Virus record (IMG/VR): IMGVR_UViG_2534682060_000012
Span: 1-4,064 of that record
From: a virus
Lineage: Duplodnaviria > Heunggongvirae > Uroviricota > Caudoviricetes
Length of the DNA: 4,064 nucleotides
Direction: 5' to 3' (one strand)
A program made the translations under genes and the position numbers. Position 1 is the stretch's first letter, and every line of letters starts with the position of its first letter. The notes under the pieces were generated by a model that was given only the letters and a program-made list of their open reading frames with translations, ran no database searches and was not told where the DNA came from. This document shows, piece by piece, positions 1,384 through 4,064 of the stretch.

Positions 1384-3660
1384 ATGCTCAATCAAGAACT
1401 GGAACTCAGTTTAAATATGGCTTTCGCCAGAGCGCGCGAGCACCGTCATGAGTTTATGACCGTCGAGCACTTGTTACTGGCGCTGCTCAGTAACCCATCT
1501 GCCCGGGAGGCGCTGGAAGCGTGTTCTGTGGATTTGGTTGCGCTCCGTCAGGAACTGGAAGCCTTTATTGAACAAACCACACCCGTTCTGCCTGCCAGTG
1601 AAGAGGAGCGCGACACACAGCCGACGCTGAGTTTTCAGCGTGTACTGCAACGTGCGGTCTTCCATGTCCAATCCTCCGGTCGCAATGAGGTAACCGGTGC
1701 AAACGTTCTGGTCGCTATCTTTAGCGAACAGGAGTCGCAGGCGGCATATCTGTTGCGTAAACATGAAGTCAGCCGTCTCGATGTGGTGAACTTTATCTCT
1801 CATGGCACGCGTAAAGACGAGCCGACACAGTCTTCTGATCCTGGCAGCCAGCCAAACAGCGAAGAACAAGCTGGTGGGGAGGAACGTATGGAGAATTTCA
1901 CGACGAACCTGAATCAGCTTGCGCGCGTGGGCGGAATCGACCCACTGATTGGTCGTGAGAAGGAGCTGGAGCGTGCTATTCAGGTTCTCTGCCGTCGCCG
2001 TAAAAACAACCCGCTGCTGGTGGGGGAATCTGGTGTCGGTAAAACCGCGATTGCGGAAGGTCTTGCCTGGCGAATTGTTCAGGGCGATGTGCCGGAAGTG
2101 ATGGCTGACTGTACGATTTACTCTCTCGATATCGGTTCTCTGTTAGCGGGCACTAAATATCGCGGCGACTTTGAAAAACGTTTTAAAGCGTTGCTCAAGC
2201 AGCTGGAGCAGGACACTAACAGCATCCTGTTTATTGATGAGATCCACACCATTATCGGTGCGGGGGCAGCGTCTGGTGGCCAGGTCGATGCGGCTAACCT
2301 GATCAAACCGTTGCTCTCCAGCGGTAAAATTCGCGTAATTGGTTCGACAACCTATCAGGAGTTCAGCAACATTTTCGAGAAAGACCGTGCTCTGGCGCGT
2401 CGCTTCCAGAAAATTGATATTACTGAACCGTCGATCGAAGAAACTGTTCAAATCATCAATGGCCTGAAACCGAAGTATGAAGCGCACCACGACGTGCGTT
2501 ATACCGCAAAAGCGGTGCGTGCAGCGGTAGAGCTGGCGGTGAAATACATTAACGATCGTCATCTGCCGGATAAAGCCATTGACGTTATCGACGAAGCGGG
2601 CGCTCGCGCACGCCTGATGCCGGTAAGCAAACGCAAGAAAACCGTTAATGTGGCGGATATTGAGTCCGTGGTGGCCCGTATTGCGCGCATTCCAGAGAAG
2701 AGTGTTTCTCAGAGTGACCGCGATACCCTGAAAAACCTCGGCGATCGCCTGAAAATGCTGGTCTTCGGTCAGGATAAAGCCATTGAGGCGCTGACTGAAG
2801 CCATTAAGATGGCGCGTGCAGGTTTAGGTCACGAACATAAACCGGTTGGTTCGTTCCTGTTTGCCGGCCCTACCGGGGTCGGGAAAACAGAGGTGACGGT
2901 ACAGCTTTCGAAAGCGTTGGGCATTGAGCTGCTGCGCTTTGATATGTCCGAGTATATGGAACGCCATACCGTCAGCCGTCTGATTGGTGCGCCTCCGGGA
3001 TACGTTGGTTTTGATCAGGGAGGTTTGCTGACTGATGCGGTCATCAAGCATCCACATGCGGTGCTGTTGCTGGACGAAATCGAGAAAGCGCATCCGGACG
3101 TGTTCAATATTCTGTTGCAGGTGATGGACAACGGTACGCTGACCGATAACAACGGACGCAAAGCGGACTTCCGTAACGTGGTGCTGGTGATGACCACCAA
3201 CGCCGGGGTACGTGAAACTGAGCGTAAATCCATTGGTCTTATCCACCAGGATAACAGCACCGATGCGATGGAGGAGATCAAGAAGATCTTTACACCGGAA
3301 TTCCGTAACCGTCTCGACAACATTATCTGGTTTGATCATCTGTCAACCGACGTGATCCATCAGGTGGTGGATAAATTCATCGTCGAGTTGCAGGTTCAGC
3401 TGGATCAGAAAGGTGTTTCTCTGGAAGTGAGCCAGGAAGCGCGTAACTGGCTGGCCGAGAAAGGTTACGACCGGGCAATGGGCGCACGTCCGATGGCGCG
3501 TGTCATCCAGGACAACCTGAAAAAACCGCTCGCCAACGAACTGCTGTTTGGTTCGCTGGTGGACGGCGGTCAGGTCACCGTCGCGCTGGATAAAGAGAAA
3601 AATGAGCTGACTTACGGATTCCAGAGTGCACAAAAGCACAAGGCGGAAGCAGCGCATTAA
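1384..3660 (+). CDS. clpA: ClpA, AAA+ unfoldase/ATP-binding subunit of the ClpAP protease
   Basis: The ORF track starts at TTG 1369, but the ATG at 1384 is preceded by GGAGG (1374-1378) and gives a 758-aa protein beginning [20 protein letters not shown], which is the ClpA N-terminus as I recall it. Two AAA+ modules are present: Walker A GESGVGKT (nt 2023-2046) and GPTGVGKT (nt 2866-2889), Walker B-like ILFIDEIH and [10 protein letters not shown], and the ClpP-docking IGL tripeptide (nt 3232-3240). Stop TAA 3658-3660. Confidence 0.97.
1876..1890 (+). promoter_or_regulatory. clpA: Internal in-frame translation initiation site of clpA (Shine-Dalgarno plus ATG of Met169), expected to give the shorter ClpA65 form
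   Basis: GGGGAGG at 1876-1882, 5-nt spacer, ATG 1888-1890 in the clpA frame (codon 169). The context is nearly identical to the main start (GGGGGAGG, 5-nt spacer, ATG 1384). Internal initiation at Met169 of E. coli clpA is established knowledge; whether it is used here is inference. Confidence 0.6.
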
Positions 3661-3685
3661 TCTGATTGTTAGGTAGGTTGGTCAA

Positions 3686-3722
3686 GTCCGTAATCTCGAA
3701 AGAGGTTACGGACTTTTTGTTT
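3686..3722 (+). terminator. Rho-independent terminator of the clpS-clpA transcript
   Basis: 12-bp stem GTCCGTAATCTC (3686-3697) / GAGGTTACGGAC (3702-3713) with one G-U wobble and a GAAA tetraloop, followed by TTTTTGTTT (3714-3722); starts 26 nt after the clpA stop. Confidence 0.8.
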
Positions 3723-3724
3723 AT

Positions 3725-3753
3725 GGGGTGGAGGAGGTTCAGACCCTTTTTTT
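3725..3753 (+). terminator. Weak second hairpin plus T7 tract (possible back-up terminator or leader boundary)
   Basis: GGGT (3726-3729) / ACCC (3743-3746) short stem with 13-nt loop, then TTTTTTT 3747-3753. The stem is short, so this is tentative. Confidence 0.3.
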
Positions 3754-3759
3754 GATGAT

Positions 3760-3873
3760 GATGGTAAATTGTTGATAATTAGTGCTGCGGGAAGGTAAGG
3801 ATAAAAAAGGGTGGTAGCAGGAAAATGAGATGGTTTTGCTTTATTAACAACGGGCTAAACGTGTAGTATTTGA
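3760..3873 (+). promoter_or_regulatory. Putative CRISPR leader (AT-rich) with possible promoter
   Basis: AT-rich by eye and lies immediately 5' of the first, best-oriented repeat. A TG-TAGTAT extended -10-like motif sits at 3862-3869, about 5 bp before repeat 1, and TTGATA at 3772-3777. Leader identity is inferred from position and array polarity (degenerate repeat at the far end). Confidence 0.45.
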
Positions 3874-4021
3874 GTTCACTGCCGTACAGACAGCTTAGAA
3901 ATCGACGGGGTGCGGTAAAACCTTTGCGAACGCGTTCACTGCCGTACAGGCAGCTTAGAAATTCACAGGTAACATACTCCACCCGCCCACCATGTTCACT
4001 GCCGTACAGACAGATAAAATG
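3874..4021 (+). CRISPR. Short type I-F (Ypest/Csy-type) CRISPR array with no cas genes in the window: 3 repeats, 2 spacers
   Basis: Repeats: R1 3874-3901 GTTCACTGCCGTACAGACAGCTTAGAAA; R2 3934-3961 GTTCACTGCCGTACAGGCAGCTTAGAAA, the canonical I-F repeat as I recall it; R3 3994-4021 GTTCACTGCCGTACAGACAGATAAAATG, degenerate at its 3' end. Spacers: S1 3902-3933 TCGACGGGGTGCGGTAAAACCTTTGCGAACGC; S2 3962-3993 TTCACAGGTAACATACTCCACCCGCCCACCAT. The 28/32-bp periodicity is exact. Orientation is + from the repeat polarity (3' CTTAGAAA handle) and the distal degenerate repeat. Confidence 0.9.
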
Positions 4022-4023
4022 CG

Positions 4024-4052
4024 AAAAAAAAGCTCGCACTTTCGTACGAGCT
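4024..4052 (-). terminator. Rho-independent terminator for a minus-strand transcript entering from beyond the window end (possibly also bidirectional)
   Basis: On the + strand: A8 (4024-4031), stem AGCTCG (4031-4036) / CGAGCT (4047-4052) with inner pairs A4038-T4045 and C4039-G4044, then CTTCTTT. On the minus strand this reads as hairpin followed by T8, the classic intrinsic terminator. The gene it terminates is outside the window; from memory of E. coli synteny it would be a tRNA-Ser or infA, which is unverified here. Confidence 0.6.
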
Positions 4053-4064
4053 CTTCTTTAAATA

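Follow-up and report, generated by a model that had tools for sequence, protein, structure and literature searches.

Most strains of Escherichia coli carry an orphan CRISPR4 array, of type I-F, between clpA and serW/infA, and a minority of them keep CRISPR4.1 together with the genes cas1f, cas3f, csy1-3 and cas6f at that place. The orphan arrays were reported by Almendros, Guzman, Garcia-Martinez and Mojica (2016, Nat Microbiol 1:16081). This is the report to which the initial annotation of the DNA described here had referred, and its content is given as it is summarised in two reviews from the Mojica laboratory. According to these reviews, I-F cas genes are almost invariably what the spacers of the orphan CRISPR4 arrays match, expression of the arrays is constitutive, and both interference and primed adaptation were obtained with native orphan arrays against plasmids that carry the full I-F cas set. 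The anti-cas arrangement is, in consequence, already known since 2016, and the array described below reproduces what the reviews say of Almendros et al.

Two properties of the I-F machinery are needed to read the matches of a spacer. The PAM of the E. coli I-F system has been experimentally defined in LF82 as GG on the target strand. Moreover, in the Csy complex every sixth position of the crRNA is left unpaired by the Cas7f thumbs.

An array that persists after the loss of its cas genes, and that is directed against them, would spare the genome an immune system by which gene uptake would be restricted. This is relevant to the patchiness of CRISPR-Cas in E. coli, and the idea was both proposed and tested experimentally in 2016. 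Here, the anatomy of one such array, its targets with their PAMs, strands and mismatch positions, the boundaries of the deletion that left it without cas genes, and its distribution in the population were read directly from the sequences. The array is an orphan type I-F ('CRISPR4') array with anti-cas spacers, and it is likely to keep I-F systems out of the cell at present.

Organization of the array

The window, that is, the whole stretch of 4,064 nucleotides that was analysed, is E. coli chromosome. It encodes ClpS (1033-1353) and ClpA (1384-3660), both with full-length NCBIfam equivalog matches, and no cas genes were found within it. Just 3' of clpA, a three-repeat type I-F array occupies positions 3874-4021. 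Its repeats are 28 nt long, start at 3874, 3934 and 3994 with a period of 60 nt, and enclose two unique spacers of 32 nt (S1 and S2). The initial annotation had already described an array at this place, with spacers at 3902-3933 and 3962-3993, and both the positions and the sequences proved to be exact. Its remark that neither spacer matches anything else inside the window was also borne out, as both strands proved free of a second copy with three or fewer mismatches, with no match in any of 200 shuffles. The features of the region are the following:

3661-3873, + strand: CRISPR leader, 213 nt, AT-rich, homologous to the leader of CRISPR4.1 (the clpA-proximal array of cas-positive strains)
3684-3715, + strand: clpA terminator-like hairpin (14-bp stem, then a T run) that marks where the intergenic leader region begins
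3874-3901, + strand: repeat 1 (R1), GTTCACTGCCGTACAGACAGCTTAGAAA, Rfam CRISPR-DR4 (RF01317) at 40.4 bits, with the change G17A against the consensus
3902-3933, + strand: spacer 1 (S1), TCGACGGGGTGCGGTAAAACCTTTGCGAACGC, anti-cas3f
3934-3961, + strand: repeat 2 (R2), GTTCACTGCCGTACAGGCAGCTTAGAAA, CRISPR-DR4 at 50.1 bits, the canonical I-F repeat
3962-3993, + strand: spacer 2 (S2), TTCACAGGTAACATACTCCACCCGCCCACCAT, anti-cas1f
3994-4021, + strand: repeat 3 (R3), terminal and degenerate, below the Rfam threshold
4024-4059, - strand: terminator-like hairpin, at the right edge of the cas deletion

R1 and R2 score above the Rfam gathering score of CRISPR-DR4 (35 bits) on the + strand. The repeats of cas-linked E. 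coli I-F arrays have exactly the sequence of R2, whose predicted fold is a Cas6f-type hairpin with a 5-bp stem and a 5-nt loop (-8.6 kcal/mol, z = -2.25). R3 keeps the repeat sequence in its first 20 nt, including G17A, and its last 8 nt have diverged (ATAAAATG). The predicted folds of R1 (-2.2 kcal/mol) and R3 (-1.4 kcal/mol) are both no better than those of shuffled sequences, and according to these predictions G17A disrupts the 5-bp Cas6f hairpin of the two repeats. The first repeat of the other five S1-bearing arrays sampled has the canonical GGCAG, which makes G17A in R1 a minority allele.

Origin of the orphan array by deletion

In cas-positive strains the order of the region is clpA, leader, CRISPR4.1, cas1f, cas3f, csy1, csy2, csy3, cas6f, serW, CRISPR4.2 (where present) and infA. 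The leader of the window shares 91.5-96.7% identity with the CRISPR4.1 leaders that were compared, those of UTI89 (91.5%), 2015C-3905 (96.7%) and CEA224S. It contains one sigma-70-like site at 3752-3779 (TTGATG-16-GATAAT), which is a consensus match only. On the other side of the array, window positions 4025-4062 match positions 15167-15204 of the UTI89 locus (L001) at 94.7%, and in cas-positive strains the counterpart of this segment lies ~70 nt past the stop codon of cas6f, just before serW. Since the leader is homologous to that of CRISPR4.1 and the tail of the window is like the sequence past cas6f, the orphan array corresponds to CRISPR4.1 with a deletion. As judged from these alignments, the deletion extends from the terminal repeat of CRISPR4.1 to ~70 nt beyond cas6f, and R3 is the left edge of the event that took out the cas operon.

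The same arrangement is found in strain M18, where the segment 3661-4064 is 100% identical and the order is clpA, array, serW and infA, without cas genes between them. Only 26 genomes match this 404-nt region at 99% identity or above.

Some other features of the region can be described at this point. The window ends with ...TTTAAATA, and K-12 and UTI89 read ...TTTAAAGATGGCGG there, which is the 3' end of serW. In M18, serW stands ~180 nt further on, which indicates a short insertion between the terminator and serW in the lineage of the window. At the opposite end, positions 1-926 differ from the usual macB-cspD-yljB neighbourhood of clpS, and the homology to UTI89 begins at 927. The same 930 nt form, in strain AR_0077, the right-hand end of an island of ~10.7 kb inserted between yljB and clpS. 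The genes of this island code for an integrase, Icd-like proteins, a DUF927 protein, SSB, a major capsid protein, a head decoration protein and a small terminase. This island looks like a capsid-forming phage satellite, PICI-like. No Pfam match was found for the ORF that ends at window position 246.

The complete I-F loci are themselves sometimes damaged. In UTI89, csy2 (L001 12596-13519) contains an internal stop and bears the annotation of a pseudogene, and in STEC299 an IS110 element is inserted in cas3f. Furthermore, the cas3f-csy1 intergenic region of UTI89 contains, at L001 10972-10989 and in reverse orientation, an 18-nt perfect copy of the core of the repeat hairpin (ACTGCCGTACAGGCAGCT).

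Targets of the two spacers

Of 5,426 complete E. coli genomes, 241 have the cas1f-cas3f segment, which occurs as two alleles, one at least 99% identical to UTI89 (201 genomes) and the other at about 94.6% (40 genomes). The spacers of the window had been proposed in the initial annotation as candidates for anti-cas spacers, and the comparison with these genes agrees with the proposal: S1 matches cas3f at 31-32 of 32 positions, and S2 matches cas1f at 29-30 of 32 positions in E. coli and at 31 in E. ruysiae. On the strength of these matches, S1 is copied from cas3f and S2 from cas1f. The GG-type PAM that was named there for I-F is also present at each target, in the form of a 5'-CC on the spacer-identical strand, and this CC stands 5' of both protospacers in every Escherichia I-F locus examined.

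S1 corresponds to the sense strand of cas3f codons 425-435 (STGCGKTFANA), which encode helicase motif I, or Walker A. The Pfam DEAD helicase domain of Cas3f begins at residue 423, and the target is placed at its start. Against the second cas3f allele (2015C-3905 and CEA224S, loci L002 and L003) the match is 32/32 with a CC PAM. Against UTI89 it is 31/32, with the mismatch at position 12, a synonymous TGC/TGT difference, and against E. ruysiae cas3f it is also 31/32, with the mismatch at position 27. As positions 6 and 12 are left unpaired, S1 is in effect fully matched, as a guide, to both of the E. coli alleles.

Except at the mismatched positions, S2 reads as the antisense strand of cas1f codons 33-43 (N-G-G-R-V-E-Y-V-T-S-E). 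It matches UTI89 cas1f at 30/32 (mismatches at positions 4 and 6), the second allele at 29/32 (positions 4, 6 and 10 in 2015C-3905 and CEA224S) and E. ruysiae cas1f at 31/32, with position 6 as the only mismatch. Because position 6 is unpaired, S2 is likewise fully matched, in effect, to the E. ruysiae allele. On the other hand, the mismatch at position 4 falls in the seed for both E. coli cas1f alleles, and S2 may prime rather than interfere against them. Position 6 (window 3967) is also where the arrays vary, as it is A in the window and T in a common array variant (TTCACTGG...). The T6 variant matches E. ruysiae cas1f at 32/32 and appears to be the 96.9% class of S2 that is found in 888 genomes, for instance in O157:H7. 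Given that this position is unpaired in the crRNA, the change between A and T should be neutral.

At the population scale, S1 is present in 1,802 of the 5,426 complete genomes, 1,590 times at 100% and 212 times at 96.9%. All the sampled matches of the 96.9% class are in cas3f (E = 6e-6 against 28 Gb). Of the matches in the 100% class, 53 were sampled, and none of them falls under a cas gene (47 are in unannotated DNA and 6 under 'hypothetical protein'), which fits copies in arrays, and all 53 of the genomes listed with such a match have it at a single place. Among the cas-positive genomes listed, the single place of the spacer is the cas gene in 12 of 12. S2 is present in 2,579 of the 5,426 genomes; its 100% and 96.9% classes lie in unannotated DNA, and its full-length matches at 90-94%, with E-values of 8e-5 to 3e-3, are in cas1f in every case sampled.

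A fortuitous similarity between short sequences and a large database has to be considered, given that the queries are only 32 nt long and that S2 has two or three mismatches to the E. coli genes. This explanation is extremely improbable. The E-values of 6e-6 and 8e-5 were obtained against 28 Gb, S1 and the T6 variant of S2 each reach 32/32, and both targets belong to the cas operon of the repeats' own subtype. In addition, a CC PAM at both targets is expected jointly in about 1 of 256 cases under even base composition, and four further spacers from orphan arrays, described below, behave alike.

Searches in phage, plasmid and viral collections

The spacers could also be ordinary immunity spacers, taken from a phage or plasmid, with a likeness to cas genes that is secondary, for example through a mobile element with cas-like genes. 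The initial annotation had named, as what would refute its proposal, the lack of any I-F cas match or matches to phage or plasmid sequences only; the cas matches given above do not refute it. A query made of S1 and S2 concatenated found nothing among 50,697 phage records, even with a cut-off of E = 10.

The plasmid collection gave seven matches, all of them 100% to S1, which at first sight would favour a plasmid origin. They lie in unannotated DNA or under 'hypothetical protein', several of them in records of megabase size, and 0 of the 7 carries a cas gene annotation over the S1 match. The one that was opened (NZ_CP148399.1) is a 73-kb chromosomal clpS-clpA-infA-aat-cydC segment with an S1-only array. 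Likewise, IMG/VR was scanned by exact patterns with N at the variable positions and returned one contig per spacer, and both contigs are clpA-region chromosome adjoining an integrated satellite: one with an S1-only array and the other with chromosomal cas1f-cas3f. Moreover, 0 of the 244 places that match cas1f-cas3f in the 5,426 E. coli genomes is on a plasmid. Regarding these data, an origin of the spacers in ordinary immunity has next to no likelihood.

These matches also have a practical side, since searches for spacer targets that trust the labels 'plasmid' or 'viral' on fragments of the clpA region would yield false mobile-element targets.

Distribution and conservation of the orphan arrays

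The form of the array in the window is not the most common one. S1, repeat and S2 stand side by side in only about 200 of the 5,426 complete genomes. Only S2 is found in K-12, B, C and O157, only S1 in many other strains, and in some arrays an extra anti-cas1f spacer stands between S1 and S2. The possibility that the window array arose by simple recombination between an S1-only array and an S2-only one was considered and rejected, because the G17A repeat precedes S1 and is not between S1 and S2.

The 12 orphan arrays that were sampled contain six distinct spacer families, all of which match I-F cas genes. Two of the families target cas1f, three cas3f and one csy3, and a CC PAM is present in the closest-matching loci of each. 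Neither S1 nor S2 was found in the arrays of the three E. coli cas-positive loci that were fetched, where the infA-side array of L003 was seen in part.

When the same 12 orphan arrays are compared with the window, 172 of 2,558 leader positions are different, and 3 of 448 in S1 and S2 together (Fisher p = 2e-9), a contrast that is indicative only, as the sample is non-random and its sequences are related. Seen by strain, the leader is unusually variable and departs from the window by 3-12%, against 0-3% for the last 150 nt of clpA and next to no variation in the spacers. In the arrays, S1 occurs essentially only as the 100% class across about 1,500 genomes. That the spacers are far less variable than the leader supports, in this indicative sense, a continued function.

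This conservation bears on the main alternative, according to which the array is a pure fossil, that is, a scar left from an old event of autoimmunity in which loss of the cas operon was selected, without present function and kept by inertia. Several signs of decay would agree with it: G17A in R1 and R3, a 4-nt deletion in S2 in one sampled array, point variants of S2 in other strains, and the fact that most genomes have one spacer only. Furthermore, the seed of S2 no longer fits any E. coli cas1f, and one review states that the uptake of spacers aimed at cas genes may have caused the gene loss. However, the low divergence of the spacers beside the adjoining leader, the essentially single class of S1 in arrays and the interference and priming by native orphan arrays, as the reviews of the 2016 work present them, argue against an inert remnant, and we regard this explanation as unlikely. 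It shares its account of the origin with the explanation favoured here and differs from it solely on the present function. Concerning that common origin, S1 and S2 probably record the self-targeting by which the original cas deletion came to be selected.

The retention of an anti-cas function at present is therefore the preferred reading, and it can accommodate the same observations. The lineages without one of the two spacers, which are the majority, and the deletion in S2 look like slow decay, and G17A, the S2 variants and the one-spacer lineages fit a slow decay that runs alongside the retention. For this reason, present function is graded as likely and no higher.

Proposed mechanism and possible effect of the G17A repeats

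The steps from transcription and processing to interference and priming are drawn from the literature and from the established type I-F mechanism, and are proposed for the window. A pre-crRNA would be made from the leader and would be inert in a cell without Cas proteins. When incoming DNA with an I-F operon is expressed, its Cas6f would cut the resident transcript, and the crRNAs of S1 and S2, once loaded into the Csy complex, would bring it to bind the CC-flanked sites in the incoming cas3f and cas1f. Cas2/3 would then degrade the incoming DNA, and priming would add further spacers. The incoming I-F operon would in this way be destroyed by its own products, so that the cell stays without an active I-F system.

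The condition of the repeats may affect the maturation step. The crRNA of S1 would take its 5' handle from the last 8 nt of R1 and its 3' hairpin from R2, and the crRNA of S2 would take its 5' handle from R2. With G17A in R1, the release of the 5' end of the S1 crRNA could be impaired, and as R3 has G17A too, a good 3' hairpin may be missing from the S2 crRNA. Hence, crRNA maturation in the window array may be impaired by the G17A repeat allele, according to the predicted folds.

Conservation of the S1 target site

The position of the S1 target over the Walker A codons raises a further possibility, namely that S1 has been kept because of its site, as a broad-range guard against I-F systems from other genera that would be under purifying selection even in cells without Cas proteins. 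The S1 target ranks 8-9 for conservation among the 497 CC-flanked 32-mers of cas1f and cas3f, when these are ordered by their mean mismatches to 30 non-Escherichia I-F loci. In addition, the codon phase of S1 places all five unpaired positions (6, 12, 18, 24 and 30) on wobble bases. A CC PAM, an intact seed and three or fewer effective mismatches were found for S1 in 10 of 35 I-F loci, from five genera, and the range includes the cas3 of Zobellella, Aeromonas, Andreprevotia and Rahnella together with all the Escherichia alleles. Even so, selection of S1 for a broad range appears quite unlikely to us.

Two more general rules were tried and rejected. The first is that anti-cas spacers favour conserved sites: five protospacers rank 8, 65, 153, 376 and 480 of the 497 by the same measure against non-Escherichia loci, and the same five are unremarkable within Escherichia. 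Only S1 stands out in the ranking, and there is thus no general enrichment for conserved targets. The second is a preference for the wobble phase, which, as judged from gene coordinates and mismatch patterns, was observed only for S1 among the six families, against an expectation of one third.

Comparison with known systems

The orphan arrays of Almendros et al. are the closest described systems, and the window array agrees with them, as they are presented in the reviews, in the species, the site from clpA to serW/infA, the 28-nt repeat, the lack of cas genes and the cas-matching spacers with an I-F PAM. There is no difference in kind. The local differences are the presence of S1 and S2 together, G17A in R1, and A instead of T at position 6 of S2. 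What is added here is the arrangement at the scale of 5,426 genomes, the exact targets with the geometry of their mismatches, and the rarer two-spacer form with a damaged first repeat; this addition over the published work is small.

The clpA-serW mini-array of K-12 (J53), which consists of two repeats and one spacer, shares with the window S2, the degenerate terminal repeat and the downstream sequence. It differs in that the S1 unit is missing and the first repeat is canonical.

The complete E. coli I-F systems, such as those of LF82 and UTI89 (CRISPR4.1, cas1, cas2/3, csy1-3, cas6f and CRISPR4.2), have the same repeat and flanking genes as the window, and a homologous leader. Their arrays, in contrast, carry 8-14 non-cas spacers and neither S1 nor S2.

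Finally, self-targeting spacers are said to have been connected with autoimmunity and with the loss of CRISPR-Cas or of the target, reportedly by Stern and co-workers in 2010 and, for the I-F system of Pectobacterium, by Vercoe and co-workers in 2013. The window array resembles this general case in that a spacer fits DNA that is, or once was, the cell's own, with a functional PAM, and in that the system or the target was deleted. It differs from it in that the target is the cas operon itself, and in that the array has outlived the operon and, as far as the reviews of the earlier work go, acts not as a passing accident but as a barrier to its re-acquisition.
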